A stretch of DNA of 64,000 bases, taken from the NCBI GenBank assembly GCA_900542285.1, contig UQNF01000003.1, positions 15,585-79,584 of the forward strand, written 5' to 3'. Below the pieces are notes generated by a model. It ran no database searches and was not told the origin of the DNA. It saw only the letters and a list, made by a program, of their open reading frames with translations. A program made the translations under genes and the position numbers. Position 1 is the first letter of the stretch. Each line of letters starts with the position of its first letter. Origin of the DNA: an uncultured Clostridium sp. Lineage in GTDB: Bacteria; Bacillota; Clostridia; Christensenellales; CAG-138. Positions 6,869 through 43,188 of this stretch are shown one piece after another.

Positions 6869-6897
6869 TTGACACCAATTCTTGACTGTGCTATACT
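6869..6897 (+). promoter_or_regulatory. Sigma-70-type promoter driving the cobalamin riboswitch
   Basis: TTGACA (6869-6874), 17-nt spacer, TGC-TATACT (hexamer 6892-6897). Confidence 0.65.
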
Positions 6898-6909
6898 ATG
6901 CACACAAAC

Positions 6910-7172
6910 GAAAGAACGGTTGCCAATCGGTGCAATAGCATCAAAGGCATTAATAGGGAATGCGGTTAGAATCCGCAGCAGTCCCCGCTACTGTAACTGG
7001 AGACGAAAGTTCAAACTGCCACTTCGCATTATGCGTGGGAAGGCGTAACGATTAGATTGACCCGGGAGCCAGGAGACCTGCCGTGCTTTCGCAATGGGTG
7101 GTTCTCGGGAGATAGACGGCCTAATCAATGCGTTGTTTCACACGAGAGCTGCATTATGTGCAGTTCTTTTTG
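6910..7172 (+). promoter_or_regulatory. Cobalamin (B12) riboswitch with intrinsic terminator expression platform
   Basis: AATAGGGAATGCGGTTAGAATCCGCAGCAGTCCCCGCTACTGTAA (6952-6996). GCCACT...GGGAAGGCG (7018-7044). B12 box GAGCCAGGAGACCTGCC (7066-7082). P1 pairs 6910-6919 with 7081-7090. Terminator hairpin AGCTGCA/TGCAGTT + CTTTTT at 7147-7172. Confidence 0.92.
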
Positions 7173-7262
7173 TTGTGTGCAGATTTCGTATTATTATGAC
7201 ATTTCTTCCTGCCGCCCGGGGGATGCAGACCCAAAAGTAATTATTACACGGAGGAATGTGAA

Positions 7263-8282
7263 ATGAAGAACTGCAAAAAACTTATCGCAATCATCGTGAT
7301 TGCAGCGCTTGCAATAAGCAGCGCAGCATCTATCGTGCTGGCAGAGCCTGCATATCCCGAAGTCCCTTCAGGGTATGACGGCTATGTTACCGTATCGGTA
7401 TCCGCTGATACAATCGGATGGGGCTATTTGATAGAACCAACGCTCGTTCCGATACATGAAGGCGAAAGCGTTGCCGAGGCGACCATAAGGCTGTTTGAGG
7501 CCATGGGCGTTGCCTATGAGGCAGGAACGCCGGAGTCATTCTACCTTACCGATGTGGCCTGCGATAACTGTGTTAACGGTGCTGAACCCAACGTTCCGGA
7601 TTACCTTATGGAACAGATAGAGCTTTATCCTGCTTGGGCTGAAGAGAATTTCGGCTTTGCCTATGGCGAATGGACGGGAACCGAAAGCGGAAACGGCATG
7701 CTTGGTACTGATGACTTCAGCACTTTCGGCGGTTGGATGATAGCCGAGGATGATATCGCGCTTCCTGCGACTGCCGGTGATTACAGCGCACAGTCAGGAC
7801 ATGTCTACCAGTGGGCATTCAGCGTATATGGCTGGGGCATGGATCTTGGCTGGAGCGACGGATGGGGTTCGTTCCCTGTTTTCGATAATCCTGCCGAGGG
7901 CGTGAACCGTGCTGATGCCGAGGAAGTCTATGCGCTTATCATGGCGGACGAGGAGCTTGCTGCGCTTGTCTCAGAGGATGGAATGGCATACGATGAGTTT
8001 GAAAGTCTTGTCGCAGCATTGGTCGATCTTTCATCCACTCAGGCTGAGATAGACAGCTGCCTTAATATGCTTCTCAATGCTCTTGATGGCGGTGCCCTGA
8101 TGGGCGATATCAACGGCGATGGTGTCGTTAATATGCAGGATGCTCAGTTAGCTATGCGTTATGCGATCGGCATTGCCGAACTGTCCGATGAGCAGCTGAG
8201 CATTGGCGACATTAACGGCGACGGAATTGTCAATTCATCCGACGCAACAATGATCGCACGCATTGCGCTGAATCTGATTTGA
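7263..8282 (+). CDS. Secreted DUF4430-like (transcobalamin beta-domain-like) protein with C-terminal type I dockerin
   Basis: Signal peptide MKNCKKLIAIIVIAALAISSAASIVLA. The core (VTVSVSADTIGWGYLIEP..., GGWMIAEDD..., ..SGHVYQWAFS) resembles DUF4430. The C-terminus has two DINGDG(V/I)VN..DA calcium-binding repeats, which make a dockerin. Confidence 0.7.
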   Translation: MKNCKKLIAIIVIAALAISSAASIVLAEPAYPEVPSGYDGYVTVSVSADTIGWGYLIEPTLVPIHEGESVAEATIRLFEAMGVAYEAGTPESFYLTDVACDNCVNGAEPNVPDYLMEQIELYPAWAEENFGFAYGEWTGTESGNGMLGTDDFSTFGGWMIAEDDIALPATAGDYSAQSGHVYQWAFSVYGWGMDLGWSDGWGSFPVFDNPAEGVNRADAEEVYALIMADEELAALVSEDGMAYDEFESLVAALVDLSSTQAEIDSCLNMLLNALDGGALMGDINGDGVVNMQDAQLAMRYAIGIAELSDEQLSIGDINGDGIVNSSDATMIARIALNLI

Positions 8283-8284
8283 TA

Positions 8285-9634
8285 ATGAAGAGCTTTTTCA
8301 GCAAGCTGATTTGTTGTCTGCTCCTGCTGTCGGTTTTGTTCCTGACAGCAGGAGACATTGCTGCCGGCACGGAGTATTCGGCTGATTACAATGCCGTGCT
8401 TGGCGCACTGTCATCCGGAGAGCCGCAATTCGGGTCTATCGGCGGTGAATGGAAGGTGCTTGCTCTTGCAAGAAGCGGATATTTCAGTGCAGACTCCGAA
8501 TACATGCGGTCCTATATATCGCTGATTGAAGAGCTGATACTCAGCATTGGAAGTCCAAAGCTTGATGAGCGAAAACCAAACGAGAATTCCAGACTTGTTA
8601 TCGCGCTTTCGAGCCTCGGATATGATGCAAGGAATGTTTCCGGCTTTGACCTGACCGAGCCGCTCAAGGATATCAACTACATTAAGAAGCAGGGCTTGAC
8701 GGGTGTTATTTACGCGCTCATCGCCCTGAGCTGCAATGATGAATATGCGGAAACCGACTACAAGAATACTCTTGTAGATTTTGTTCTTAATGCAGAGATA
8801 GACGGCGGTGGCTGGGCGTTGGGCGGAGGCAATCCCGACCCCGATGTTACGGCAATTGCGATAACGGCCGTTACGGGTTATACACAGGCTCGTTCTGCCA
8901 TTGAAAGAGGAATTGCAAAGCTTTCCGATATGCAGGCGGAGGACGGAACGTATTCGAGCTATGGAGCGACAAACTCCGAAAGCTGCTCTCAGGTCCTGCT
9001 TGCGCTCAGCACGCTTGGTATAGATGCAGATACGGATCAAAGGTTTATAAAAAACGGTGTATCGCTTTTATCTGCGCTGCTTTCATTCTCAACCGGCTCG
9101 GGCTTTTCTCATATGCCGAACGGCTCAACCAATCAGATGGCTTCCGAACAGGCAGCATATGCGTTGTGCGCATATGACAGGATGGTAAAAAGCAGGACGG
9201 CACTCTTTGATATGAGCGATGTGTGGCATGCTCCTGTTCAGCCGACACCGATGGCGGCAAGTACGCCAAAGCCGACACCCAAACCCACACCGACTGCTGC
9301 GCCGTCCCATTCCGAAGCTCCGACTGTTTCGGCAGTAACGACCGAACAGCCAACACAGGAGGATACCGACGCACCGGCATTGATCGAAGTACCTTCTGAC
9401 ATTTCGACGGAAGCTGCCGATACTACGCCTGATTATGAAGCTCCAACGGAGCAGGTGACGATATTTGAAATGGGCTCCGACGCCCCGACCGTTCAAACGA
9501 CACAGGACGATAGCCGGGCTCCTTCCGAAAAGCAGCGCAATGGCTTTATCAAGCTGCTTTGGCTGCTGCCCGCGGCTGTATTGGCTGCTGCATTGATCGT
9601 TATCAAACTAATTAGAGGAAAGAAAAAGGTATGA
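8285..9634 (+). CDS. Surface protein with prenyltransferase/squalene-oxidase-like alpha-toroid repeats, Pro/Thr-rich linker and C-terminal TM anchor
   Basis: Signal peptide. Repeats such as GGWALGGGNPDPDVTAIAITAV and EDGTYSSYG..NSESCSQVLLALS. PTPKPTPKPTP linker. C-terminal LLWLLPAAVLAAALIVIKLIRGKKKV. ATG at 8285 preferred over the TTG at 8279 used by the track. Confidence 0.65.
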   Translation: MKSFFSKLICCLLLLSVLFLTAGDIAAGTEYSADYNAVLGALSSGEPQFGSIGGEWKVLALARSGYFSADSEYMRSYISLIEELILSIGSPKLDERKPNENSRLVIALSSLGYDARNVSGFDLTEPLKDINYIKKQGLTGVIYALIALSCNDEYAETDYKNTLVDFVLNAEIDGGGWALGGGNPDPDVTAIAITAVTGYTQARSAIERGIAKLSDMQAEDGTYSSYGATNSESCSQVLLALSTLGIDADTDQRFIKNGVSLLSALLSFSTGSGFSHMPNGSTNQMASEQAAYALCAYDRMVKSRTALFDMSDVWHAPVQPTPMAASTPKPTPKPTPTAAPSHSEAPTVSAVTTEQPTQEDTDAPALIEVPSDISTEAADTTPDYEAPTEQVTIFEMGSDAPTVQTTQDDSRAPSEKQRNGFIKLLWLLPAAVLAAALIVIKLIRGKKKV

Positions 9635-10122
9635 AAAGAACTGCCGCAATTATCGCATTGCTTTGCCTAATAGTAACAGCGTTTTTTGGCTGCGCAGAGG
9701 GCACGGGATCGGATGCCATGCTGCACTGCACGATACTTATCGAGTGCAAAAACGCTGTCGCTTGCAATGAATTGGCAGCGGAGCAAAAGGAATTCCTCCC
9801 AAGCGACGGAATGATACTTACAAAGACGGAAATTGCTTTTACCGATGGAGAATCCGTTTACGATGTGCTCGTTCGCGAGTGCCGCGAAAGAGGAATTCAT
9901 ATGGAGGCAAGCTATGCTCCTGTCTATGACAGCGCATATATCGAAGGCATTGCAAACCTGTATGAGTTCGATTGCGGAAGCTTGAGCGGATGGACATACT
10001 GCGTTAACGGAGTTTTCCCAAACTATGGATGCAGCAATTTTAAGCTCTCGGACGGTGACGAGATAGAATTCCATTATTCCTGTGATCTGGGCAGGGATGT
10101 AGGCGCAGTATTTGAGGAGTAG
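9631..10122 (+). CDS. DUF4430-family lipoprotein
   Basis: Lipobox LIVTAFFGC. ...SGWTYCVNGVFPNYGCSNFKLSDGDEIEFHYS is the characteristic DUF4430 C-terminal motif. Confidence 0.75.
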   Translation: MKRTAAIIALLCLIVTAFFGCAEGTGSDAMLHCTILIECKNAVACNELAAEQKEFLPSDGMILTKTEIAFTDGESVYDVLVRECRERGIHMEASYAPVYDSAYIEGIANLYEFDCGSLSGWTYCVNGVFPNYGCSNFKLSDGDEIEFHYSCDLGRDVGAVFEE

Positions 10123-10126
10123 CGTG

Positions 10127-11020
10127 GTGAAAATCAGGGATACGATGAATGAGATCCATCCTTTGATCGCATTTGCATTCTTTGCATTTGTGCTTGTGAT
10201 GTCCATGCTGTTTTTGCATCCCGTTTATATAATTATTTCGCTCACAACGGGCACAGTTTGGGCGTTTTTACTTCGTGGAAAACAAACACTCAGGTTTTTG
10301 CTGACGTTCGTGCTGCCGATCACAATTCTTGTTGCAATACTGAATCCGCTGTTTAACCATAAGGGAGTTACTATCCTGTTCTATATTAGGGATAATCCGA
10401 TCACTTTGGAGTCGATGATCTATGCAGTCACATCCGCATTTATGTTTGCCTCTGTACTCATATGGTTCTCTTGCTTTAATGAAGTTATGAAAAGCGATAA
10501 GATAATCTATCTATTCGGCAAGACCATTCCGTCCGTATCGCTCATTATTACTATGGTGCTTCGATTTGTTCCGCTGTACAAGCAGCAGGCAAAAAGGATC
10601 TCTATTGCCATGCGCGCTCAGGGAATAGATGTCAGTCAGGGGAGTATCATCAAGCGTGCCAAGTACGGTCTCAGCATACTGTCGGCACTTATCACCTGGG
10701 GACTTGAAAGCTCGGTAACTACTGCGGATTCAATGCGTTCCAGAGGTCATGGGCTTCCGCACAGGACGCATTATTCGGTTTATAGATTTGACAGACGGGA
10801 TCTGATACTTTCAATACTGCTGATCATTGGCATTGCTTTTATTGGTGTATCTGCCGGAACAAATACTATCTATGCAAAGTTCTATCCGGTATTTAAGCTT
10901 AATTCATGGAATGCCGCATCGATCATCTGCACCGCAGTATATGCATTGATTCTTTTGATACCGATAATTCTTAATTTAACAGAGGCAGTATCATGGCGGC
11001 ACTTGAAATCAAAAATTTAA
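10127..11020 (+). CDS. ECF transporter transmembrane (T) component (CbiQ/EcfT family)
   Basis: Polytopic membrane protein. The A..MRAQG and ..ADSMRSRG motifs match the two Ala-Arg-Gly coupling helices of EcfT. Start is ambiguous (TTG 10112, GTG 10127, ATG 10145). Confidence 0.8.
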   Translation: MKIRDTMNEIHPLIAFAFFAFVLVMSMLFLHPVYIIISLTTGTVWAFLLRGKQTLRFLLTFVLPITILVAILNPLFNHKGVTILFYIRDNPITLESMIYAVTSAFMFASVLIWFSCFNEVMKSDKIIYLFGKTIPSVSLIITMVLRFVPLYKQQAKRISIAMRAQGIDVSQGSIIKRAKYGLSILSALITWGLESSVTTADSMRSRGHGLPHRTHYSVYRFDRRDLILSILLIIGIAFIGVSAGTNTIYAKFYPVFKLNSWNAASIICTAVYALILLIPIILNLTEAVSWRHLKSKI

Positions 11021-12648
11021 GCTTCTCATATCCGACACAGCAGGAAGGCGAGAAAGCGCTGGACGACATAAGCCTAAGCATTGCCGAGGGCGAATTTGTA
11101 CTCGTATGCGGCCCTTCCGGATGCGGCAAGTCAACCTTGCTGCGCCAGATAAAGCCTTCGCTGCGTCCGCATGGAAGATCATCGGGTTCTGTAATGCTTA
11201 ACGGAAGGAGTGTTAATGAACTCAGCTTCCGTGAGCAGACGGAACAGATAGGCTTTGTTCTGCAAGACCCGGAAATGCAGCTTGTAACCGATAAGGTTTG
11301 GCACGAGCTGGCGTTCGGACTTGAAAGCCTTGGTATGGAAAACTCCAAGATGCGGGTCCGGATCGCGGAGATTGCGAACTATTTCGGCATACAAACCTAC
11401 CTCGATGCGTCAACCGCAGAGCTTTCGGGTGGGCAGAAACAGCTTATATGCCTGGCCGGGATAATGGCAATGCAGCCCGAGCTTCTTCTTCTTGATGAGC
11501 CGACTTCGCAGTTAGATCCGATTGCTGCCGGCGAATTCTTCTCAGCCCTGAAGCGTATCAACGAAGAGACCGGAACTACTGTAGTAATCACCGAGCATAG
11601 ATATGAAAACCTGTTCTCTATTGCCGATAGGGTAGTGTTTATGGAGAACGGAAGAGTTATCGGGAACTGCAGTCCACGCAGAGCAGTTTCGGAGCTTTCA
11701 GGCAAGCCGGACTATGTTAATATCCTTCCTGCAGCCATGAGACTCTATGCCGAGACCGCCTCTTCGACAGATAATGCGCCTATAACCGTCCGCGAGGGCA
11801 GGAGCTATCTGCGCAGCATTATCGGTCAAAAGGACGAAAGCGATGAAATCGGCAAAACAAATCCCAAAAAGGAAAAAAGAGAACCGATCCTTTCCGTAAA
11901 CGACGTATGGTTCAGATATGAGCGTAGCGGCAAGGACGTGCTGAAGGGCTTGGGTGTTGATTTCTTTCGTGGCGAGCTTTCCTGCGTAATCGGAGCTAAC
12001 GGCGCCGGCAAAACTACCGCTATAATGAACGCTGCGGGACTGTATAAGCCTTATCGGGGAAAGGTCCGTTTTGACGGCAAAGACATAAGAACATACAAGA
12101 GCTCCGAATTGTACGGAAGGCGGATCGCTCTGTTGGTTCAGAACCCGGCTTGCTGCTTTGTGAAAGATACCGTGCGTGAGGAACTTGAGAGCGTCCGCAA
12201 GCACTTTGAACTGACCGGAGACAGGCTTGACGAGGTAATTGAGCTGATGGAGCTTGCGCCGATTCTTGATCGTCATCCATATGATATCAGCGGAGGAGAG
12301 CTTCAGCGTGCGGCAATTGCAAGACTGCTCCTGCCAAATCCGGAGATCATCTTTATGGACGAGGCCACAAAGGGTATGGACGCATTCTTCAAACAGCGTT
12401 TCGGTTTGCTTCTTAAGAGACTGACCGCAAACGGAACATCGATAGTCATGGTCTCGCATGATATTGAGTTTTGTGCTGAATATGCCGCCCGCTGCGCAAT
12501 GATTTTTGACGGCGGCATTACTGCTGAGGGAAGCTGCAGGGAAGTGCTGATAGACAACAGCTTCTACACCACCGCCGCCAACAGGCTGTCAAGGGGGATA
12601 GTGCATTCTGTGCTGACGGTCAATGAGCTCATTGACAGAGTAAAATGA
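10993..12648 (+). CDS. ECF transporter fused double ATPase (A-A' components)
   Basis: 551 aa with two ABC cassettes: GPSGCGKST ... LSGGQKQ ... LLLDEP, and GANGAGKTT ... ISGGELQR ... IFMDEA. Confidence 0.92.
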   Translation: MAALEIKNLSFSYPTQQEGEKALDDISLSIAEGEFVLVCGPSGCGKSTLLRQIKPSLRPHGRSSGSVMLNGRSVNELSFREQTEQIGFVLQDPEMQLVTDKVWHELAFGLESLGMENSKMRVRIAEIANYFGIQTYLDASTAELSGGQKQLICLAGIMAMQPELLLLDEPTSQLDPIAAGEFFSALKRINEETGTTVVITEHRYENLFSIADRVVFMENGRVIGNCSPRRAVSELSGKPDYVNILPAAMRLYAETASSTDNAPITVREGRSYLRSIIGQKDESDEIGKTNPKKEKREPILSVNDVWFRYERSGKDVLKGLGVDFFRGELSCVIGANGAGKTTAIMNAAGLYKPYRGKVRFDGKDIRTYKSSELYGRRIALLVQNPACCFVKDTVREELESVRKHFELTGDRLDEVIELMELAPILDRHPYDISGGELQRAAIARLLLPNPEIIFMDEATKGMDAFFKQRFGLLLKRLTANGTSIVMVSHDIEFCAEYAARCAMIFDGGITAEGSCREVLIDNSFYTTAANRLSRGIVHSVLTVNELIDRVK

Positions 12649-13406
12649 GGAAAAGAAACGAATCGGCAATTTCACATACGATAAATGAAGAGCAAGGCAA
12701 TAAGCGCCTGAGCATGCGGCATCTTATCGCCGGACTTCTGATACTCGTTTTTATTCCGACGGTCATCGCTGTCGGTATGCTTGCTTGGGGTGACAGGCAT
12801 TATTATATCGTTTCTATCATTATCATCATGGCGGCGCTCGTTCCGTTTGCGATGCTGTTCGAAAAGCGTAAGCCAAGGACGAGAGAGCTTGTGCTTATAG
12901 CCGTAATGACAACCCTTGGGGTCGTTGGACGCGCGGCATTCTATATGCTGCCACAGTTTAAGCCTGTTACCGCAATAGTGATAATAACCGGCGTTGCGCT
13001 TGGAAGTGAGGCAGGCTTTGCCACGGGCGCGCTCACTGCGTTCGTTTCGAATATTTTCTTTGGCCAGGGTCCATGGACTCCCTGGCAGATGTTTGCATTC
13101 GGAATAATCGGATTCCTTTCCGGCGTACTGTTCTCGGACAATAGCAATAAAAAAGTTAATCTGCCGCTTTTGTTAGTGTTTGGTGCGCTGGCGACATTCG
13201 CTATATACGGCGGAATAATGGATACATCATCGCTGTTTATGATGAGCTCTGAAATCTCGTGGAGCGCGCTTCTTGCTATGTTCGCATCGGGCTTTGTTAT
13301 GAACCTTATTCATGCTGCGTCGACAGTGGTGTTTCTGCTTGTGCTTTCAAAGCCTCTTCTGAAAAAGCTTCGAAGGATAAGAATAAAATACGGCATGATG
13401 GAATGA
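12645..13406 (+). CDS. ECF-type substrate-capture (S) component-like membrane protein
   Basis: 253 aa, about 6 TM helices, FFGQGPWTPWQM motif. Last gene of the riboswitch-controlled ECF cluster, overlapping the ATPase stop. Confidence 0.65.
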   Translation: MRKRNESAISHTINEEQGNKRLSMRHLIAGLLILVFIPTVIAVGMLAWGDRHYYIVSIIIIMAALVPFAMLFEKRKPRTRELVLIAVMTTLGVVGRAAFYMLPQFKPVTAIVIITGVALGSEAGFATGALTAFVSNIFFGQGPWTPWQMFAFGIIGFLSGVLFSDNSNKKVNLPLLLVFGALATFAIYGGIMDTSSLFMMSSEISWSALLAMFASGFVMNLIHAASTVVFLLVLSKPLLKKLRRIRIKYGMME

Positions 13407-13541
13407 ATTAGTCAAAAAACATTTCTATACTTTTCTTGGTTTGTCAGGCATTATGCGCTTGAAGATTTACCACTAATGGGATATAATAGAATAAACGAGA
13501 ATACCAAGCCGCTTGCGTATTCATGAAAACAGGAGGAAGCC

Positions 13542-14471
13542 ATGGAAAAAATGCTTTCATTGATCGTTCCCGTTTATAACGAGGAGGAAGTTCTTGAGGT
13601 ATCCTTTGAGAAGATGGATCAGGAAATGAAAAAGATCGGCTATCCATATGAGATAATTTATGTCAACGATGGAAGCCGTGACGGTTCAATGAAGATTCTT
13701 CGCAGAATCGCAAAGGAAAATCCGCAGGTCAAGGTACGTTCCTTCAGCAGGAACTTCGGCCATCAGACTGCCGTTACTTGCGGTATGGATGCCGCAAAGG
13801 GCGATGCGCTTATCATCATTGATGTTGACCTTCAGGATCCGCCCGAAGTCATTGAGGATATGGTAAAAGCTTGGGAAAACGGTGCGGATATCGCGTACGG
13901 AAAACGTCTCAAGAGAAAGGGAGAGACCATATTCAAAAAGTTTACCGCATTCTGCTACTATCGTCTTTTGAAGGCGATGAGTGCGAATGCCATTCCGCTC
14001 GACACCGGAGATTTCCGTTTGATAGACCGCAAGGTTGCCGATGTGTTCCTAAAGATGCGTGAACACAATCGTTTCCTCCGCGGTATGAGCGGTTGGATGG
14101 GCTTTGAAGCAGTGCCTATCGAGTATGTTCGTAATGAACGCTATGCAGGCAAGACAAAGTATACCCTCAAGAAAATGCTCCGTCTCGCTATGGACGGTAT
14201 TATCGGCTTCAGCGACAGGCCGCTGACCATTTGCGGAGCGTTTGGAGCAGGCGTGCTTGCGTTGGGTGGACTTGGACTCATCGCCTTGATAGTGCTTGCA
14301 TGTTGCGCTGTCAAGTTCCCTGCTTGGCTTTGGGCACTTGACGGCATTGTTATCCTGCAGGCAATGCTGTTCATGTTCCAGGGAATTCAGGGCTCTTATA
14401 TGAACCGTATGTATGATGAGCTTAAAGCGCGTCCGCTATACATCGTTGCGGAGGAGCTTAATATCGATTGA
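13542..14471 (+). CDS. Family 2 glycosyltransferase (GtrB / polyprenyl-phosphate sugar transferase-like)
   Basis: LSLIVPVYNEEE, YEIIYVNDGSRD, DVDLQDPPE, plus two C-terminal TM helices. Confidence 0.85.
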   Translation: MEKMLSLIVPVYNEEEVLEVSFEKMDQEMKKIGYPYEIIYVNDGSRDGSMKILRRIAKENPQVKVRSFSRNFGHQTAVTCGMDAAKGDALIIIDVDLQDPPEVIEDMVKAWENGADIAYGKRLKRKGETIFKKFTAFCYYRLLKAMSANAIPLDTGDFRLIDRKVADVFLKMREHNRFLRGMSGWMGFEAVPIEYVRNERYAGKTKYTLKKMLRLAMDGIIGFSDRPLTICGAFGAGVLALGGLGLIALIVLACCAVKFPAWLWALDGIVILQAMLFMFQGIQGSYMNRMYDELKARPLYIVAEELNID

Positions 14472-14611
14472 TTTGCGGAGCTTTATACCTTAAGCATCGA
14501 AAATCTGATTTTTGAATTCGGGAACGGTTTTTAGCAGATTTTCCGAATAATATAGTTGTGTTTTCTGTTTATTTGGCTATAATACAAATTGGAAGCAAAA
14601 TTAATCCTTAG

Positions 14612-15652
<1,041 letters not shown>

Positions 15653-32929: not shown

Positions 32930-35335
32930 ATGAAGAGAATTATCAGCGTCTTACTGTCCGTCATGCTTCTCATGACTATCGTTCCGGTAGCAGCAGAAAC
33001 AAAAACGGATGCAGACACTCGCCTTATCAATCAGGGCGTACTTGAGATAGATGATGACGGCAGCGACGGCTATTCGGGAGATTATGTCGTTATCTACAAC
33101 CCGAGCACCAGCGCATATTCGGATGTAAGCACCGGCAACATGAGCGGTCTTATCGAAACCGAGATTGGTACATCGCTGATCGGCAGAATGGATGCCGTCA
33201 AGAGCGATAGGCCGTATAGGATTGATATCGATTCAGAGCTTGCAGATAAAAATGAAAAAGCTCCCGAGTTCGCATCCGAAAAATCCATTTCCTTTGAAGT
33301 AGGCGATACGCATGTTTTCAGCATCAATTCAAGCTATTGTCCGCTTCCGAGTACAAGCGTTGAGTTCGAGGTGCTTGCCAAGGGTGAACATTGCTATATT
33401 TGGACCCCGACGTCTACCGCTTCGAATGTATACCCCCTGGACAGCATCGACTCGAGCTTCGGCCAGCTCTGCGCCGATGAGTTCGATTCAAAGTTTGACC
33501 TTATGCAATCCTCCTTCGGCAACCATTCAAACGGAAGTCAGGGCGATGGCAGGCTGAACATACTGTATTACAATATTGATGACGGTTGGACTCCCGGCAA
33601 TGGTTACGTGGCAGGCTTCTTCTCCTCCGCAGATCTGGCAAGCAATGGTATGCCCATTCTGAACATCGATACCTATCCCGGCGTTTATTATGTAACTACT
33701 GATGGCGAAGTCATAGCCGATGTTACGGATACTTACGGTACCATGGTGCACGAATACCAGCATCTCATCAACTATTCGGAGTGCGGCTACAGCGATACAT
33801 GGCTCAATGAATGCATGAGTGCCGCTGCTGAGGAGATCTGTTACCCAGGCAGCAGCATAGCTCCGAGGATCCAGTCTTGGATGAACTATAAGTTCAGCGT
33901 GAACGACGATTGGCTCAATCCTCCTGCAGAGCATGAGTACCAGTCCTCCTGGAGCCTCCACAACGGCTTCTCGATGTATGATTGGAGCAACTGGCTCGAT
34001 ATGTCCGATAGGCTTGCGCTTTATGCCCAGGTATCGCTTTATGCTCAGTACATTTACACCCAGTACGGCAACTCCACCTTCCGCGCGATCCTCGAGAGGC
34101 TTGCAAACGGTCAGGAATTCCAGTATGCGTTCCAGAATGTAACCGGGCAGAGCGCATCCGAATTCACAAGGAATTTCCGTATTGCGCTTACCGCAAATGA
34201 TCCCAACGCTGAGGATGGCATCTATGGCTTCAGTATGCAGGAGGGGTATGATCCTTCACAGTATCATGACGTAGAAAACCTGTATAACTGGCTTTCTCCC
34301 GTTGTGTTCACGGGCAGCTCATGCACAATCTCGGGCGGCGGTGCAATCACCATTAAGCCCGTTGACGGCGTTTACTATCCGCCTGCAGGCGCCGGAAGCT
34401 CGCTTGAGTATTATGGCATCACGCTCGATGCTATTCCGCCTGAACCCGTTCCGCTAACCAACATCAGCATCAACCCCACTTCGGTCAGCGTTTATACCGG
34501 AGCGACCGCAAGGCTGACCGCTGTAAGGGAACCCGAAAACGCCAATAATTATGAGCTGACATGGACTTCTTCCAACAGCAGCGTTGCAACGGTTAGCGGC
34601 AACAACAGGTTTGCAACCGTTACCGGAGTATCTCAGGGTACCGCCACTATCACCTGTACCGCACATGATCTTCTAAATGACCGAACCTATACTTCAACTG
34701 CAGCGGTTACCGTATTGGGCATGCCCACCGTTAACGATGCGCTTAATGTTGAAAACGGCACGCTGGAGTTTACCACAGGCTCAACATATCCTTGGGAAGT
34801 CGTATTCACCGCTGACGGCAGGGTTGCGGCTAAGAGCAGCAACGAGGGCGTTGAAAGCTCGAGCTCAACCATTACTCTAACGGTCAATATGAATGCCGGC
34901 GACACAATGAGCTTCGATTGGAGCGTAAGCAGTGAATCCAACTATGATAAGCTCTTCTTTAAGGTAAACAATGTCGAGCAGTCCAATATCTCCGGCTCCG
35001 TTGCGTGGACCACTGTGTCCTATACGGCGGCAACCACCGGCAGCTACACCTTTACATGGGTCTATAGCAAGGATGGCAGCGTCAATCGTGACGAGGACTG
35101 TGGCTATCTCGACAATGTCAACGTGCCCGGCTATACCGGCGGCAGCGAATATGAGCTTGGCGATGTAAATATGAACGGCAGCGTAGATATGAACGATGTT
35201 ACTCTCGTTATGCGCCATGCTATGGGCCTTATCAGCCTCAGCAGCGAACAGTGTCAGCTTGCGGATTACAACCGTGACGGCAATGTCAATACGGCCGATG
35301 CAGCCGCTATAATGCGTCGTGCAATGGGAATATAA
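32930..35335 (+). CDS. Secreted HExxH zinc metallopeptidase (hyicolysin/M30-like motif context) with Big_2 domain and C-terminal dockerin
   Basis: Signal peptide. TMVHEYQHLINY (HEYQH at 33749-33763). Big_2-like segment ISINPTSVSVYTGATARLTAV...SSNSSVATVS..G.VTGVSQGTATITCTA. Dockerin GDVNMNGSVDMNDV...ADYNRDGNVNTADA. Confidence 0.7.
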   Translation: MKRIISVLLSVMLLMTIVPVAAETKTDADTRLINQGVLEIDDDGSDGYSGDYVVIYNPSTSAYSDVSTGNMSGLIETEIGTSLIGRMDAVKSDRPYRIDIDSELADKNEKAPEFASEKSISFEVGDTHVFSINSSYCPLPSTSVEFEVLAKGEHCYIWTPTSTASNVYPLDSIDSSFGQLCADEFDSKFDLMQSSFGNHSNGSQGDGRLNILYYNIDDGWTPGNGYVAGFFSSADLASNGMPILNIDTYPGVYYVTTDGEVIADVTDTYGTMVHEYQHLINYSECGYSDTWLNECMSAAAEEICYPGSSIAPRIQSWMNYKFSVNDDWLNPPAEHEYQSSWSLHNGFSMYDWSNWLDMSDRLALYAQVSLYAQYIYTQYGNSTFRAILERLANGQEFQYAFQNVTGQSASEFTRNFRIALTANDPNAEDGIYGFSMQEGYDPSQYHDVENLYNWLSPVVFTGSSCTISGGGAITIKPVDGVYYPPAGAGSSLEYYGITLDAIPPEPVPLTNISINPTSVSVYTGATARLTAVREPENANNYELTWTSSNSSVATVSGNNRFATVTGVSQGTATITCTAHDLLNDRTYTSTAAVTVLGMPTVNDALNVENGTLEFTTGSTYPWEVVFTADGRVAAKSSNEGVESSSSTITLTVNMNAGDTMSFDWSVSSESNYDKLFFKVNNVEQSNISGSVAWTTVSYTAATTGSYTFTWVYSKDGSVNRDEDCGYLDNVNVPGYTGGSEYELGDVNMNGSVDMNDVTLVMRHAMGLISLSSEQCQLADYNRDGNVNTADAAAIMRRAMGI

Positions 35336-36367: not shown

Positions 36368-37099
36368 TTATTTCTCCACTGAACTGCGTTTTCTGCTCTT
36401 TTTTAGCAGCACTGCGCAGCCTATCACAGCGCCCAATGCGACGAGCACAACGCCGAAATCAAAGCGGCTTGCTTCGCCGGTAGGGGGAGCAGGAGGCGCG
36501 GAGGGTTCCTCTGAGGGCTCCTCTGAGGGCTCAGAGGAAGGTTCCTCGGAAGGCTCAGGAGAGGGTTCGGGAGTTGGGGTTGGAGGAATGAACTCTTCCT
36601 CAACGCTGAACACCCAGGTAATGGTTCCCACTGCGTTCTGGAACTCATCGCCCATTTCAAGAGAGGCATTGAGCGACAGATCGAGCGTGATCTCAGCGCC
36701 GGCGGCGAATTCGCCAAGCAGAACGCCGTAGCCATCATCATCCGCAAGGCCGCCCTGTTCGTTGGCCGGGGCATTGAATATCTCGGATTCGCCGTTATTG
36801 ACCGTTAGGGTGAAATACGAAAGGAATTCCGCATCCGCAGGGTCAACAGGCAGTGCCTTGAGATAGATGCCAACGGTCATATCGCTCGAATTGCGAATCA
36901 GGATCTGCTGCTCGAGAGAATCACCGGGCATAACACCCTTAAAATTGGAGAACAGGTCGGTCGATTCTGGGGTGAATACGAACTCGTTCTCTTCGCCGGT
37001 GAAATCCACGGTCGGAAGCCCATCGGCAAAGGCGTTGGCGCATGCAAGCGCAAGGCAGGCGACAAGCATCAGAGCAACAAGCTTAAATTTTTTTCTCAT
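36368..37099 (-). CDS. TasA/camelysin-like protein with Sec signal peptide, PEPS-rich linker and C-terminal APPTG + TM + basic-tail sorting signal
   Basis: Signal peptide ends ANAFA|DG. FKGVMPGDSLEQQILIRNSSD..VGIYLKA is TasA-like (compare VMPGDTIAKVVKIENTGD in the 40976-41527 product). The C-terminus reads PPAPPTGEASRFDFGVVLVALGAVIGCAVLLKKSRKRS. Confidence 0.65.
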   Translation of the reverse strand: MRKKFKLVALMLVACLALACANAFADGLPTVDFTGEENEFVFTPESTDLFSNFKGVMPGDSLEQQILIRNSSDMTVGIYLKALPVDPADAEFLSYFTLTVNNGESEIFNAPANEQGGLADDDGYGVLLGEFAAGAEITLDLSLNASLEMGDEFQNAVGTITWVFSVEEEFIPPTPTPEPSPEPSEEPSSEPSEEPSEEPSAPPAPPTGEASRFDFGVVLVALGAVIGCAVLLKKSRKRSSVEK

Positions 37100-37101
37100 A
37101 C

Positions 37102-37695
37102 TCAGTTACCTCCTTGTTCCGTCTTGGCGAGTGTGCCATCCGTACAAACTACTACCGGCCATACCGTTTCGACTGTCGAAGTCGGGAGCGACTGGACGGC
37201 GGAGGCGATGACCTGAAGCTCAAAATCGTACTCGTGCTCTCCATCTTTTACGGTACAGCTCTTGATAAGAATGGGAGTGTATTCGTCCGGCTTGATAAAG
37301 GTCTTGCAGTAGTAGAAACCATCAGTACCTTTGAACCAGAATTGATTGAAATCATCTCCCAAAGTGATGTTGCAATCATCGAGGTAAGCAGGCTTTGCGG
37401 CAATATTGCCCTCATCGTCCACCCATGCCGGAACCAGCGCAACGCGGATATACGCAGGAACGTTACCGGTGTTCTTTATTCTGACATTCTGCTTGGTTGT
37501 ACCATTGAACGTCTCATCAACCTGTATGGTAACTTCACCCGGAGTGAACTCGTTTACAACAGGTCCGGGAGTGCTGATAAGCCATGCCAAGCTGCCGGAT
37601 ACGGCCGCACAGGCGAGAATACAGACGCAGAATGCTATCAGAAACGGCTTGATGGACCGTTTGGGCTTGCGCGAATAGGTTTTAATCTGCCTCAT
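37102..37695 (-). CDS. SipW-class signal peptide protein, TasA-like paralog
   Basis: N-terminus ...SGSLAWLISTPGPVVNEFTPGEVTIQVDE, then VRIKNTGNVPAYIRVALV. Its start overlaps the stop of the vWA gene by 14 nt. Confidence 0.7.
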   Translation of the reverse strand: MRQIKTYSRKPKRSIKPFLIAFCVCILACAAVSGSLAWLISTPGPVVNEFTPGEVTIQVDETFNGTTKQNVRIKNTGNVPAYIRVALVPAWVDDEGNIAAKPAYLDDCNITLGDDFNQFWFKGTDGFYYCKTFIKPDEYTPILIKSCTVKDGEHEYDFELQVIASAVQSLPTSTVETVWPVVVCTDGTLAKTEQGGN

Positions 37696-40600
37696 CGGTC
37701 AAGTCCTCCTTTCCGGGGATGATAGCGGGCATTGGGCTGTATTCCGGACTGCCATTGGAGTCAAAGACGTTCGTTGCCACTGCTTCATCGCTGAGCCAGA
37801 ACTCGTTGTTAAGTCTGTTGGTCATTGTGACGATTGCTTCTTCGGGGCTTTCGGCGGGAAGCGTTGCTAAGACGCCATTTTGTTCTTCAACAAGCTCATA
37901 TCTCCAGGACCATTTGGTGTCCTCGCTGACGGTGTAGGTGCCGACAGGAAGGCCTACAATCGTACGGCTGCCTGCACCGACAATGAGAACATTGTAATCG
38001 GCTGGGCTAAGTATAGTGACCCCTTCTTTCGTAGTAAGTCCGGGGTAACTGACCGTGAAGATAAAGCTCTGTTCCGCATCCAGAAGCCGGCTGCCTTCTG
38101 CGATAGCCTTTTTAACCGTCAATGAGCAGGTGTTGACATGCAGTATGAACTTACACGGAACTGCACCTTCTGTACCGAAGTCACAGCCTGAGTGCTCACA
38201 TTCATCATGCACAAAGCTCACATGGCGATCAATATCGGTTTCGCCGATCTTTACCGATACATTGACCGGGATATCATCGGGAACGACGATATAGCCTTTC
38301 TTAATGGCATTCTCGGGCGTTGTGGCATAGTCAAGCTTAAGCGTGGGTGCGCTGCCCTCCATAGTCACCGAACTGTCCACAGTTTCGCCATGCTTCCAAG
38401 CAACGGGCTTATAGTTTGCCGTATAATCCGTATACTGTCCGCCATACCAGACCTCGCTGTCAGCGAAGGTGAGGACGGGCTTAAAGACATTGATTGTGCC
38501 TTCGTCGTAGCCTGACTGCTGAGTTGCAAGAGTCCCGGGTAGGAGATTACCATCTTTGTCATAACCGGTATCGGGCTTAGGCGATACCGTAACGGTGATG
38601 GAATATGTTGTGTCATCGGACAGTTCGTCAATGCCATCTGTGACAGCATGGCCGCTTGCATCCTTGATAACAACGCTTATGTTCACATACTCCGTTTGCC
38701 AGGTTTCAAGACCGTAGTTATTATCTGCCGCTGCCAGATTAAGTGAGACGCCTCCGACGGTGACGGTCGCATCTTCCTTGAGCTGCGCTGCGGTCAGGCC
38801 GTTCAGCAGATATACGTTCTTGTCGCTTGCGGTTACGGAAACTTCGCCAATCGGAACGTTTACCTCGGGACGCTCAAATGTCAACACCGGGTTAATGGCG
38901 CTACTATTCTCGTACACGCCGGCATTCGCATTGGTGTACACATTGTTGCCGCCAAGGAAGCCGGCTTTCGGGCTGACGGTGAATCTTATCACCAGCTTGT
39001 GGCCGTGGTAAGTAACTTCACCGTTATTGGTTACAGTTCCTACATAGTGTTCGGCAAAGTCAAAGTTGGTAACACTAACCTGACTGCCAAATATACTAGC
39101 CGTTGCGCCCATTGGATCATCTTGATTCATCGAATCAACGTTTCTTCTCCATGTGTATTTATTATCGCCGTTCTTACCGATGCAGGCATAGGTCTTAAGC
39201 GTAATATCTTCAGCCGTTGTGCCTTCCGGTAAAGTGAATGCAGGGGCGATGATGTCCCTGATGACGGTATGTTCGCTCAGGGTAGTGGAGGAACCACCGG
39301 TTTCTATCTGTTGGCTGATCTTCTCAAAGATATCGTTGAGAGCATCAGCGTCGCCTGCGGAAAGATAGTAGCTTGGGCTCTGCACATTACCGTTGTTGGA
39401 AGACAGATTCTGCATGAACCAGTTGGCTTTTTGGGTATCGTTTCCGCTTGAGCTACCTGCGCTTGTTGCATCTGCACCATCAAATATACCAACGGTATAA
39501 ACAGTTGCACCATAGGTGCTTTTTGCAGTGCTTCCTTGCGATATGGCAGCATTTCCTACGGTGCTGTTATATCTTCCGGTGCCAGGCAAGCCATCAGTGA
39601 AAACGATTACGACACGATTTCGCTTTGTCCCTTCTTCAATCTTGTTGACATTCAGAATACCGTTTGCCATCTCCATTCCCAGATCAGTGAAGGTTCCGCC
39701 ATATGCGTCCAAAGCTTTAATTGAGTTCGCAATATTGTTTTTCCCTATTGATGTGTTCATGCTTTGCAACGCATTGCTATACTGAGCAATTGCAGAGTTA
39801 CCATAAGTGTATTGTGTAGCACCGACAAATACTTCTGTGTTTTCATATTTGTCTTCATTGTATTCTGTTCCACTTGATGCAAAGCCAACAACTGCAATAC
39901 GGTGATTAACATCGTCTTCCGTTCCCATCTGACCATCCTTGCCCTTTGCTTTCACAGCTACCGCATTGGCAAATGCAGTTACAGCATTCTTCAATGCTTC
40001 AAGGCGAGTGGTTTCCACAGCAGTCCTCAGATATAGTTTATTATGGATTTCTGGAACAGTGTCCGGTCTATCTGATTCATATGAACCTTCTGACCATGAA
40101 TATGTATACTTAAAGTATCCTCTAATAAGGAAAACAGTCCAAATCCAATCCCTGCTTACTGATACCTGAGCATAACTACCATCATCAAGCTTATAAAAGA
40201 GATTATTTTGCTGATAGTAGTAGTCCGAGTTCGTCATATCGAAATAACTATCATATTTATAACTGCTGGTGAAGCTATCAGCCATACTTCCCGACTGGTC
40301 AAGCACCAGAACGATATCGGTGGGGATATACTCCGTAACCTCGGTGATGACCTTTTCACCGGTTGCATAGGCCTCCAGAGTGATGGTATAGGTACCGTCT
40401 CCGTTCGCAACGGCGTTTTTCGTTATCTCCATACCGCTGTCACCATTTCCGCTGCCCGTATCGTCGCCGGATACGGATGCGCCGCGAGTGGGCGAGCCGC
40501 AAACCGGGTCGAGCAGGGGAGCGACATTGGTGAAGTTGACAGTTGTATAAACATACTCAAGGTCGCCATCCTCTTCGGCGGCGGCGATAAGCTCGTTTAT

Positions 40601-40936
40601 ATGCTCTTCAAGCGCGGCATACTGCTCCTCGGTGAGAGAATCGATAAATGCGCTCAGCTGTTCGTCGGTGAGCCCTTCAAGCAGCGCGTGAGCCTCCGCA
40701 AAGGTCGCGGCTGCCATAAGGTCATTGTACAGTGCGGCATAATCGGGAGCTTCCACCGGGGTATCGGTATCGGACGGAGCGGGAGTTACTGACGGTGCAG
40801 AGGTTGGACTGCCCGAATTCGCTTGGCTGCCCATATTGGCGATGCCGCCTTCGTTCAGCGCGACAATGGCTGAGCCCATGGGCGTAATAAGGCATAAGCA
40901 GAGAAGCAGTGACAATAGCCCTTTAAGTATCTTCAT
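37682..40936 (-). CDS. Large secreted vWA (MIDAS) domain protein, adhesin-like, no recognisable cell-wall anchor
   Basis: 1084 aa. Signal peptide. DIVLVLDQSGSM (DxSxS at 40286-40300) and VVIVFTDGLPG. C-terminal beta-rich modules (e.g. GTYTVSEDTKWSWRYEL). Ends ...GKEDLTDEAD with no LPxTG or TM segment. Confidence 0.8.
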   Translation of the reverse strand: MKILKGLLSLLLCLCLITPMGSAIVALNEGGIANMGSQANSGSPTSAPSVTPAPSDTDTPVEAPDYAALYNDLMAAATFAEAHALLEGLTDEQLSAFIDSLTEEQYAALEEHINELIAAAEEDGDLEYVYTTVNFTNVAPLLDPVCGSPTRGASVSGDDTGSGNGDSGMEITKNAVANGDGTYTITLEAYATGEKVITEVTEYIPTDIVLVLDQSGSMADSFTSSYKYDSYFDMTNSDYYYQQNNLFYKLDDGSYAQVSVSRDWIWTVFLIRGYFKYTYSWSEGSYESDRPDTVPEIHNKLYLRTAVETTRLEALKNAVTAFANAVAVKAKGKDGQMGTEDDVNHRIAVVGFASSGTEYNEDKYENTEVFVGATQYTYGNSAIAQYSNALQSMNTSIGKNNIANSIKALDAYGGTFTDLGMEMANGILNVNKIEEGTKRNRVVIVFTDGLPGTGRYNSTVGNAAISQGSTAKSTYGATVYTVGIFDGADATSAGSSSGNDTQKANWFMQNLSSNNGNVQSPSYYLSAGDADALNDIFEKISQQIETGGSSTTLSEHTVIRDIIAPAFTLPEGTTAEDITLKTYACIGKNGDNKYTWRRNVDSMNQDDPMGATASIFGSQVSVTNFDFAEHYVGTVTNNGEVTYHGHKLVIRFTVSPKAGFLGGNNVYTNANAGVYENSSAINPVLTFERPEVNVPIGEVSVTASDKNVYLLNGLTAAQLKEDATVTVGGVSLNLAAADNNYGLETWQTEYVNISVVIKDASGHAVTDGIDELSDDTTYSITVTVSPKPDTGYDKDGNLLPGTLATQQSGYDEGTINVFKPVLTFADSEVWYGGQYTDYTANYKPVAWKHGETVDSSVTMEGSAPTLKLDYATTPENAIKKGYIVVPDDIPVNVSVKIGETDIDRHVSFVHDECEHSGCDFGTEGAVPCKFILHVNTCSLTVKKAIAEGSRLLDAEQSFIFTVSYPGLTTKEGVTILSPADYNVLIVGAGSRTIVGLPVGTYTVSEDTKWSWRYELVEEQNGVLATLPAESPEEAIVTMTNRLNNEFWLSDEAVATNVFDSNGSPEYSPMPAIIPGKEDLTDEAD

Positions 40937-40975
40937 GTGCTATACCTCCTTTTCTAAAGATTTTTTGTGAAATGC

Positions 40976-41527
40976 TCACTCTGCGGGCCAGCCCTGCGCA
41001 GCCAGAACGGTTGCGCCGTTGTTTGCATACTGTACAGCCTCTGCGTCAACATCGATGCTCAGAACCGCATCCATATAGGAGTTGCCAAGGCTGATGTCGA
41101 ATGCTACGCTTGAGAACAGCTCGTTGGTGAAGGCACCGCCGTCAACGGGGCTGTTGTAGTAATAGTAGCCGTCCGAATAGGTCCAATCGGTGGTGTTGTA
41201 ATCAAGGGTGATGTCGTCGGTTGACAGCGCCTGCTGGTTGGCATCGGTGCAGCTCATGGTGACCTTTACACGGATCCATGCGGTATTGTCGCCGGTGTTC
41301 TCAATCTTAACGACCTTTGCGATGGTGTCGCCGGGCATAACACCGGTCTGATCCACAAAGGGATCGCCGTTTTCGTCGGTCTCATGGATAGCTATCCCGA
41401 GATTGCCGGCGGTTATCTGATTGTTTGCAGTATCCTGCGCGGTGAAGTAGGCGAGGGAGCCGAGCGCAAGGATGGATACGCAGGCGATAATTGCCGCAAG
41501 AATCGTAATCTTCTTCTTGATATTCAT
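40976..41527 (-). CDS. TasA/camelysin (peptidase M73-like) family protein with SipW-class signal peptide
   Basis: ...LGSLAYFTAQDTANNQITAGNLGIAIHE..., GVMPGDTIAKVVKIENTGDNTAWIRVKV. Confidence 0.8.
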   Translation of the reverse strand: MNIKKKITILAAIIACVSILALGSLAYFTAQDTANNQITAGNLGIAIHETDENGDPFVDQTGVMPGDTIAKVVKIENTGDNTAWIRVKVTMSCTDANQQALSTDDITLDYNTTDWTYSDGYYYYNSPVDGGAFTNELFSSVAFDISLGNSYMDAVLSIDVDAEAVQYANNGATVLAAQGWPAE

Positions 41528-41646
41528 ATTCTTTGCCTTTCTTTTTTAATTTATTTGCTATTTGCGGCTTTTGTGCCGCTGCTCACATATACCGCCACCC
41601 CGGCCGCTTTTGCGGCCAGGGCAACGTTAGTGAGGTGGAGGGATTA

Positions 41647-42426: not shown

Positions 42427-42495
42427 AAAACAAATTCTCCTTAATAATTTATTGTTTTTGTTTCTTTGTTAGTTGGTTGCTGCGTGATCGATAAA

Positions 42496-43137: not shown

Positions 43138-43188
43138 GTTCTTCCTTTCCGGGCGCGCTCTGCGGCGCCCATGCATTATATATGGGAT

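Follow-up and report, generated by a model that had tools for sequence, protein, structure and literature searches.

We propose that the first gene of a vitamin B12 (cobalamin) operon, referred to here as gene 1, encodes a protein that captures corrinoids at the cell surface as an accessory to an uptake system of the energy-coupling factor (ECF)-CbrT type, and that the dockerin at its C-terminus serves as a surface tether. The operon lies in a 64,000-nucleotide stretch of DNA from an uncultured Clostridium sp. (contig UQNF01000003.1, positions 15,585 to 79,584), which we call the window and in whose coordinates positions are given. We place the probability of this reading at roughly 0.6. We favor a surface tether because orthologs of gene 1 swap anchors, because anchors vary across the superfamily, and because sister operons encode cohesins. 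The dockerin is best read as one of several interchangeable envelope anchors in this superfamily and not as a sign of a carbohydrate-degrading complex. Transcobalamin-like surface proteins that scavenge B12 were already predicted in 2007; what appears new here, judged by the papers searched, is the cohesin-dockerin tether of such a module, which, judging from sequence, recurs across several gut lineages and is at times encoded with its own cohesin. A literature search returned no paper joining dockerin with DUF4430, nor dockerin with cobalamin and riboswitch, and dockerin and "terpene cyclase" occurred together only in Ze et al. 2015 (PMC4611034).

The dockerin of gene 1

Gene 1 encodes a protein of 339 amino acids (aa), the last 59 of which are GDINGDGVVNMQDAQLAMRYAIGIAELSDEQLSIGDINGDGIVNSSDATMIARIALNLI. 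The initial annotation had assigned a dockerin to this end, and the Pfam Dockerin_1 profile (PF00404, gathering score 22.9 bits) bore it out, matching residues 281-333 at 41.3 bits (E = 1.8e-10). The module follows the type I pattern of two segments of ~22 residues, each with an EF-hand-like loop (D-x-N/D-x-D/N-G-x-x-x-x-x-D) and then a helix. The two calcium loops, DINGDGVVNMQD and DINGDGIVNSSD, are encoded at 8106-8141 and 8208-8243, respectively, in frame with the open reading frame (ORF) at 7263-8282. A family profile of 24 homologs matched solved dockerins, including Xyn10B of Clostridium thermocellum (1ohz_B, E = 1.7e-10) and Amy16 and Amy10 of Ruminococcus bromii. The AlphaFold model places dockerin helices at residues 291-301, 309-315, and 325-335. 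Its C-terminus superimposes on the C. thermocellum dockerin 2ccl_B with a template modeling (TM) score of 0.91 and a root-mean-square deviation of 1.1 Å, and on 4fl4 with a TM score of 0.8. The C-terminus of gene 1 is predicted to adopt a dockerin fold.

Residues D282, G287, D293, D316, and D327 of the calcium loops are invariant in the 24 homologs (42-98% identity), as are R299 and R333, so that each recognition helix bears one invariant arginine. Mean pairwise identity is 51% in the dockerin, 56% in the ligand-binding core, and 38% in the helical spacer, and the dockerins of five contigs from the same species show no amino acid change. Because of the profile and fold matches and the invariant calcium-loop and arginine residues, we consider the dockerin to be real and under selection. 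It is present in every full-length member of the 12 clusters (at 90% identity) into which the metagenome loci fall and in nearly all other orthologs found. About 16 ortholog sequence clusters retain the dockerin, and all but one retain the riboswitch described below. One ortholog cluster recurs in ~50 contigs of metagenomic origin, and human gut is the label of at least some of these. The one relative returned by a scan of genome contigs is 64% identical.

The riboswitch-controlled operon and its predicted corrinoid-binding proteins

The operon and its control region comprise the following features:

6869-6897, forward strand: sigma-70-like promoter (TTGACA, 17-nt spacer, TATACT, and TG extension; 11 of 12 consensus positions; a consensus match only)
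6903-7099, forward strand: cobalamin riboswitch aptamer (RF00174, 115.3 bits, E = 3.5e-28, full model length)
7144-7178, forward strand: terminator-like hairpin and T-run, a putative expression platform (11-pair stem, then TTTGTTGTGT)
7263-8282, forward strand: gene 1, with signal peptide, transcobalamin-beta-like domain, helical spacer, and dockerin
7371-7910, forward strand: beta-grasp domain of gene 1, transcobalamin-beta/DUF4430-like and predicted to bind ligand (aa 37-216)
7911-8093, forward strand: helical spacer of gene 1, four helices predicted in the model (aa 217-277)
8103-8279, forward strand: type I dockerin of gene 1 (aa 281-339)
8285-9634, forward strand: gene 2, alpha/alpha-toroid protein (transcobalamin-alpha/terpene-cyclase fold) with Pro/Thr-rich stalk and C-terminal membrane helix
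9631-10122, forward strand: gene 3, 163-aa DUF4430 protein, second transcobalamin-beta-like module (PF14478, 58.5 bits, E = 9e-16)
10112-11020, forward strand: gene 4, ECF transporter T component, CbiQ family (PF02361, 29.2 bits)
10993-12648, forward strand: gene 5, fused ECF ATPases A-A' with two ATP-binding cassette (ABC) domains (PF00005 twice, E = 3.1e-55)
12645-13406, forward strand: gene 6, CbrT-like ECF S component (PF07155 and PF12822)

As initially annotated, gene 1 stands first behind a cobalamin riboswitch. The aptamer scores above the RF00174 gathering score of 31.5 bits and lies on the same strand immediately upstream of gene 1, with the terminator-like hairpin (7144-7168) between it and the start codon. 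This control is kept in nearly all orthologous loci (homologous loci are labeled L001, L006, L081, etc., and homologous proteins P0004, P0187, etc.). A cobalamin riboswitch lies directly upstream of the orthologs in L001 (64% identity), L007, and L008; nhmmer detected one in 62 of 67 metagenome loci, with copies truncated at the 5' end among the five exceptions, and Rfam returned one in 12 of 12 loci tested (86-127 bits). The gene order gene 1, gene 2, gene 3, T, A-A', S is also conserved among orthologous loci. Locus L006 holds a three-gene module (7263-10985) encoding a dockerin protein, a toroid protein, and a DUF4430 protein, preceded by genes for a 220-aa multi-pass membrane protein and a Peptidase_C11 protein; both upstream neighbors recur in the P0013 locus, which has a riboswitch (L019). 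The L006 protein upstream of the gene 1 ortholog was considered as a cohesin and rejected as a multi-pass membrane protein.

The gene 1 ATG at 7263 has GGAGG 8 nt upstream. Public gene calls lengthen the protein by 36 codons to 375 aa (window 7155-7262; L002 10001-10108), using an ATG within the riboswitch terminator hairpin. Since all homologs start with MKxCKK, these longer calls are probably wrong. The gene 2 ORF opens at a TTG at 8279, and its homologs begin at the ATG at 8285 (P0322, 449 aa). For gene 4, public gene calls begin 11 codons further downstream.

Residues 1-27 of gene 1 look like a Sec signal peptide, which would direct secretion. The domain that follows (aa 37-216) had no direct match in Pfam or NCBIfam. 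In the AlphaFold model of gene 1 (predicted local distance difference test [pLDDT] score of 87), the best PDB matches found by Foldseek for this domain were 5no0 and 5np4, the beta domain of human transcobalamin, with target-normalized TM scores of 0.70-0.71 and a probability of 1.0. Foldseek also matched it to 3u7z, the DUF4430 protein RUMGNA_00854. The modeled order of elements, beta-beta-alpha-(beta hairpin)-beta-beta-beta, is the signature of the transcobalamin-like SLBB clade (PMC1796856); strands span residues 40-47, 55-64, 85-89 and 92-99 (the hairpin), 157-162, and 181-187, and the helix spans residues 70-81. When the gene 1 family was compared with gene 3 using hhalign, the two aligned with an E-value of 1.6e-5 across a ~45-aa insertion. 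Canonical DUF4430 has neither this helical insertion nor the invariant motif, rich in Trp and Gly, at the C-terminal end of the gene 1 domain. The genomic context is also that of the transcobalamin-like SLBB proteins, with a signal-like N-terminus, a toroid partner, and CbiQ with two ABC domains. Fold, DUF4430 profile similarity, and the ECF-CbrT-like transporter context together suggest that gene 1 is a putative corrinoid-binding protein, as the initial annotation had it.

An exhaustive HMMER search with the N-domain profile reached 2,940 representative clusters, and 299 of these had E ≤ 1e-30. Sampled members of this superfamily match PF14478 above threshold (36-117 bits, with paralog P0179 at 36.5 bits) and also carry SLH, Big_2, FIVAR, and prenyltransferase/squalene-cyclase toroid domains. 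The invariant motif of gene 1, YGxGMDxGxSxGWGxFPxxxNPxxGVxR (window 7830-7910, aa 190-216), is rich in Trp, Gly, and Asp and extends the "DLGxDxG" at the C-terminus of canonical DUF4430. Giant surface proteins of 1,900-2,800 aa (P0180, P0182, P0190, P0229, and P0291) contain up to eight copies of the extended beta-grasp module of the gene 1 type, and P0180 additionally bears toroid domains and SLH anchors. The spacer (aa 217-277) is the least conserved region of gene 1. A FIVAR identity for the spacer was unsupported in the window protein, with only weak matches, in P0044 and P0186. Profile A1 aligned residues 229-324 to 2jnk_A (E = 0.0044).

The gene 2 model has pLDDT > 90 over residues 30-300, a C-terminal helix at residues 422-450, and a disordered Pro/Thr stalk. 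Foldseek matched it to class II terpene cyclases, prenyltransferases, transcobalamin (7qbg_C), and intrinsic factor (3kq4_A), and the modeled fold alone cannot tell these apart; sequence comparison gave weak matches to PF13243 and TIGR01507. Gene 3 is probably a lipoprotein, as suggested by a lipobox (...FFGC) read by eye from its sequence, and would be lipidated. Among the three extracytoplasmic proteins of the operon, gene 1 alone is without a covalent or membrane anchor. The sole PDB sequence match of the gene 6 S component was 6FNP chain A (E = 1.3e-12). Entry 6FNP is the vitamin B12 transporter ECF-CbrT (PMC5997447), and chain A (182 aa, deposited as "Membrane protein") is presumably the CbrT subunit. 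With a CbrT-related S component, a PF02361 protein, and two PF00005 domains in one operon, genes 4 to 6 constitute an ECF-CbrT-type importer whose substrate specificity is predicted.

Anchors, cohesins, and the role of the dockerin

A few orthologs of gene 1 carry other anchors. The end of P0187 (46% identity over aa 1-275) is a sortase signal, made up of an acidic linker rich in Pro, then VPETG, a hydrophobic stretch, and a basic tail. In P0189, a C-terminal membrane helix replaces the dockerin, and P0004 (66% identical) has a C-terminal Pro/Thr linker, PTTG, and a hydrophobic tail. Superfamily-wide, a dockerin profile built from the family found a dockerin in 22 of the 150 top representatives. 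Other members have SLH domains (Pfam matches in two sampled proteins, and SLH-like C-terminal motifs seen by eye in many others), C-terminal membrane-anchor or LPXTG-like tails (called by simple pattern match), or Big_2 domains. Relatives of gene 2 carry a dockerin (P0386, P0404, and P0439) or SLH domains (P0389). In Ruminococcus sp., proteins of 603-620 aa combine DUF4430, an immunoglobulin (Ig)-like region (seen by eye, with no Pfam match), a toroid, and a dockerin. One of these, at 620 aa, is encoded in locus L012 of an uncultured Ruminococcus sp. (8001-14640), followed by a DUF4430 protein and CbiQ. L012 also encodes an 889-aa fusion of both ABC ATPases with an ECF S component, and its cobalamin riboswitch (7711-7860) falls below threshold (27.8 vs 31.5 bits).

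Cohesins are encoded within some of the related operons. Loci L081 and L082 share the order cobalamin riboswitch (116 bits), 885-aa protein, 210-aa cohesin protein, DUF4430 protein, and ECF genes; the 885-aa protein consists of a beta-grasp domain, a toroid, and a divergent dockerin-like end. The 210-aa protein of L081 (8604-9236) has an N-terminal membrane helix and matches Pfam Cohesin at 24.8 bits (gathering score 24.1, E = 2.8e-5). The layout of L015 is the same, with a 208-aa lipoprotein cohesin (11870-12496) that scores 23.6 bits, just below threshold (E = 6.7e-5). The L015 and L081 proteins are homologous (E = 3e-21), and in both operons the single-cohesin gene directly follows the gene of the dockerin-bearing protein. 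The L015 cohesin had no relatives in a metagenome scan, and its pairwise BLAST comparison with a CipA cohesin was uninformative. No cobalamin riboswitch was seen in the related operons L009 and L015.

Two further kinds of protein were observed in these loci. DUF4430 lipoproteins of ~400-417 aa (L014 1307-2560, L015 12489-13733, L009 3075-4280, and L081 9258-10502) share an N-terminal domain of ~130 aa that contains the motif ...G(I/D)xYxWxxFGSxI...ILNFS, has no Pfam match, and is followed by a long acidic or Ser-rich linker. In L026 (12700-13029, reverse strand) and ~30 sister loci, the ECF S gene is immediately followed by a convergent gene for a further dockerin protein, in which a GYTFxxW-type repeat comes ahead of the dockerin. 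These loci come from a common gut-metagenome species with a 40%-identical ortholog of gene 1.

When the window's larger and unannotated ORFs were scanned with Pfam and gene lists were read out to 10 kb past both ends, no cohesin turned up in the operon, the window, or these flanks. Likewise, the window and the 10 kb on either side contained no carbohydrate-active enzyme (CAZyme) or scaffoldin, and a hidden Markov model built from the two operon-encoded cohesins (L081 and L015) returned nothing in the window or other loci. Single-cell genomes of Christensenellales are reported to contain both cohesins and dockerins (PMC10266427). The window does encode a second secreted dockerin protein, 25 kb from gene 1 (32930-35335, forward strand, 801 aa; dockerin 41.1 bits). 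This protein comprises an N-terminal region with the motif HEYQH (HExxH) and no Pfam match, a Big_2 domain at residues 510-580, and a C-terminal dockerin that shares 27 of 59 residues (46%) with the gene 1 dockerin. Both dockerin proteins seen in the window are thus non-CAZymes, which suggests that the organism displays several non-CAZyme proteins via dockerins. Further along, the window encodes three camelysin/TasA-like (Peptidase_M73) proteins, an S26 signal peptidase (SipW-like), and a 1,083-aa VWA-domain protein (36368-43797, reverse strand). This cluster looks like a TasA-type fiber or surface-appendage locus and is adjoined by a serine resolvase gene (44102-44707, reverse strand).

Under the surface-tether reading, binding of B12 to the riboswitch would let the hairpin at 7144-7168 stop transcription, and when B12 is scarce, the six-gene operon would be read through. 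The gene 1 product would be exported via its signal peptide, and its dockerin would dock on the cohesin of a cell-bound protein encoded elsewhere in the genome; such a cohesin partner presumably exists in this organism. Docking would keep the transcobalamin-beta-like domain, on its helical spacer, at the outer face of the Gram-positive envelope. There, the domain might bind corrinoids alone or sandwiched against the gene 2 toroid, like the two domains of transcobalamin. Corrinoids would then pass to the two proteins close to the membrane, the lipoprotein of gene 3 and the gene 2 protein with its Pro/Thr stalk, and from there to the CbrT-like S component for ATP-driven import.

The initial annotation went further and saw gene 1 as an unusual non-CAZyme cargo of a cellulosome or amylosome, with B12 captured at a scaffold on the cell surface or in a shared extracellular complex. 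Of that description, a riboswitch-controlled, putatively corrinoid-binding protein with a dockerin is supported; the cellulosome or amylosome cargo is not. In such a scheme, the dockerin would plug the B12 binder into a multi-cohesin scaffoldin shared with carbohydrate-active enzymes. The dockerin is canonical and most like ruminococcal and clostridial enzyme dockerins (R. bromii Amy16 and Amy10, C. thermocellum Xyn10B and CelD), Ruminococcus sp. encodes the 603-620-aa DUF4430-toroid-dockerin proteins, and the amylosome maker R. bromii has a dockerin-bearing "putative terpene cyclase" (PMC4611034), with Coh1, Coh3, and Coh4 binding amylase and non-amylase dockerins alike. However, CAZymes, scaffoldins, and cohesins are all absent from the window and its flanks, and the second dockerin protein is likewise a non-CAZyme. 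Orthologs carry direct wall or membrane anchors in the dockerin's place, and the co-encoded cohesins are single, on a small membrane protein, with no scaffoldin. The source is an uncultured Eubacteriales/Christensenellales-type metagenome-assembled genome. We therefore regard a place on a degradative scaffold as distinctly improbable; the anchor swaps and the dedicated single membrane cohesins favor simple surface tethering. The cargo would also be less unusual than supposed, as non-CAZyme dockerin proteins are common, for example, in R. bromii (PMC4611034).

A dockerin without a cohesin partner is another possibility, which we consider unlikely. Gene 1 could be a soluble "corrinophore," its dockerin could bind another partner (the gene 2 protein or a wall polysaccharide), or the dockerin could be a calcium-dependent stabilizing module. 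This would agree with the lack of a cohesin in or near the window, with gene 1 being the sole unanchored extracytoplasmic protein of the operon, and with the finding that, of 11 R. bromii dockerins assayed against four cohesins, 3 did not bind any (Table 4 of PMC4611034). In contrast, the calcium loops and helix arginines are invariant over ~16 clusters, and the dockerin is as conserved as the binding core, which points to a specific interaction. The 46% identity with the dockerin of the 801-aa protein suggests a common partner, replacement by sortase or membrane anchors implies that the job of the dockerin is cell attachment, and sister operons hold cohesin genes. We see very little chance that the ligand is instead heme, another tetrapyrrole, or a metabolite, with B12 control of the operon a coincidence. 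The homologous Lsa1836-1840 system of Lactobacillus sakei is reported to contribute to heme uptake (bioRxiv 10.1101/864751), SLBB domains bind diverse soluble ligands (PMC1796856), and L009 and L015 show no cobalamin riboswitch. Nevertheless, essentially all orthologous loci have a cobalamin riboswitch of high score directly ahead of the gene, the S component matches no PDB sequence other than 6FNP chain A, taken as CbrT, and the closest folds are B12 carriers.

Besides the L. sakei report and the lack of a cohesin in or near the window, several points weigh against surface corrinoid capture by gene 1. In searches of gene 1 with PF14478, nothing was found at E ≤ 0.01, the Foldseek E-values of its N-domain are modest (5e-4 to 1e-3), and the hhalign probability with gene 3 is only 79%. 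At the sequence level, nothing in the PDB linked the gene 1 profile, gene 2, or gene 3 to transcobalamin, which leaves no template for mapping B12-contact residues. The L006 module has neither a riboswitch nor adjacent ECF genes. The operon has two beta-like proteins for one alpha-like protein, which the proposed scheme does not account for, and the order of hand-off described above is purely what we infer.

Comparison with known systems

Gut communities are shaped by the contest for B12 and other cobamides. How Bacteroides captures them at its surface is understood (BtuG/BtuH), but ideas on how Gram-positive anaerobes take hold of extracellular corrinoids have seen little testing. The locus described here and its relatives point to a modular solution, in which transcobalamin-like domains are held on the envelope via interchangeable anchors, cohesin-dockerin pairs among them. 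If so, cohesin-dockerin biology would widen from polysaccharide-degrading complexes and toxins to micronutrient scavenging, and the dockerin-bearing "terpene cyclase" of R. bromii, a cultivable, B12-requiring species whose cohesins have already been cloned, would gain a function. Many hypothetical proteins annotated as "dockerin type I repeat-containing" in gut metagenomes would be open to re-annotation. More tentatively, gut Clostridia (a Christensenellales-like lineage, Ruminococcus spp., and others) might build a dedicated cohesin-dockerin apparatus for B12. In this apparatus, alpha and beta modules would be docked on membrane- or wall-anchored cohesins, sometimes encoded in the same operon, as a multi-tier relay to ECF-CbrT. 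We find this possible but doubtful; if true, it would be a Gram-positive counterpart of BtuG/BtuH and a cohesin-dockerin use unrelated to polysaccharide breakdown.

The closest precedent is the prediction that transcobalamin-like SLBB surface proteins in CbiO/CbiQ operons are B12 scavengers (Burroughs, Balaji, Iyer, and Aravind 2007, PMC1796856). That system comprises a transcobalamin-like SLBB protein, a toroid, a second SLBB paralog, and CbiO/CbiQ, in organisms without B12 synthesis. The window operon resembles it in its secreted beta-grasp protein of the transcobalamin clade, its toroid partner, the second SLBB paralog in the operon, and the CbiO/CbiQ (ECF) neighbors. In contrast, the accessory modules described there are Gram-positive anchor, Ig, FIVAR, fasciclin, and beta-propeller domains, and neither dockerin nor cohesin is mentioned. 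The gene 1 domain also differs in its helical insertion and Trp/Gly-rich motif and escapes the Pfam model.

The transporter resembles ECF-CbrT of Lactobacillus delbrueckii (6FNP; Santos et al. 2018, PMC5997447) in its S component, with T and A-A' also present. The window operon differs in placing three genes for extracytoplasmic accessory proteins before the transporter genes, and its S component has 253 aa with an N-terminal extension, compared with 182 aa in 6FNP chain A. To our knowledge, ECF-CbrT works without any extracellular binding protein. Lsa1836-1840 of L. sakei (bioRxiv 10.1101/864751) similarly combines S, A-A', and T components with one alpha-toroid and one beta-domain extracellular protein. 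Unlike the window operon, it is proposed to import heme and has no dockerin-bearing third protein, and the paper does not mention a riboswitch.

In R. bromii, 22 of 26 dockerin proteins lack a GH13 starch-degrading module, and one of these is the "putative terpene cyclase" (Ze et al. 2015, PMC4611034), which we take to be an alpha-toroid of the gene 2 type. The sortase-anchored single-cohesin protein Sca2 binds non-amylase dockerins and has been proposed as a general surface anchor (PMC4611034). The two organisms are alike in having type I dockerins on secreted non-CAZymes, including peptidases, which the peptidase-like 801-aa dockerin protein of the window parallels. However, the "terpene cyclase" was not recognized as B12-related, and none of the 11 tested dockerins was annotated as belonging to a terpene cyclase. 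Going by its source names, the window organism is also not a Ruminococcus. The dockerin fragment of Clostridium perfringens NagJ (2jnk/2ozn) is a further example of non-cellulosomal cohesin-dockerin use and likewise has a helical module before the dockerin; there, the cargo consists of glycoside-hydrolase toxins.

BtuG and BtuH of Bacteroides are surface B12-binding lipoproteins. They differ from gene 1 in having a beta-propeller fold, in being held by a lipid anchor in the outer membrane of a Gram-negative cell, and in partnering with the TonB-dependent transporter BtuB. The likeness to the proposed role of gene 1 lies in the overall design, in which an additional high-affinity B12 binder at the surface, encoded in a riboswitch-controlled uptake locus, feeds a membrane transporter.

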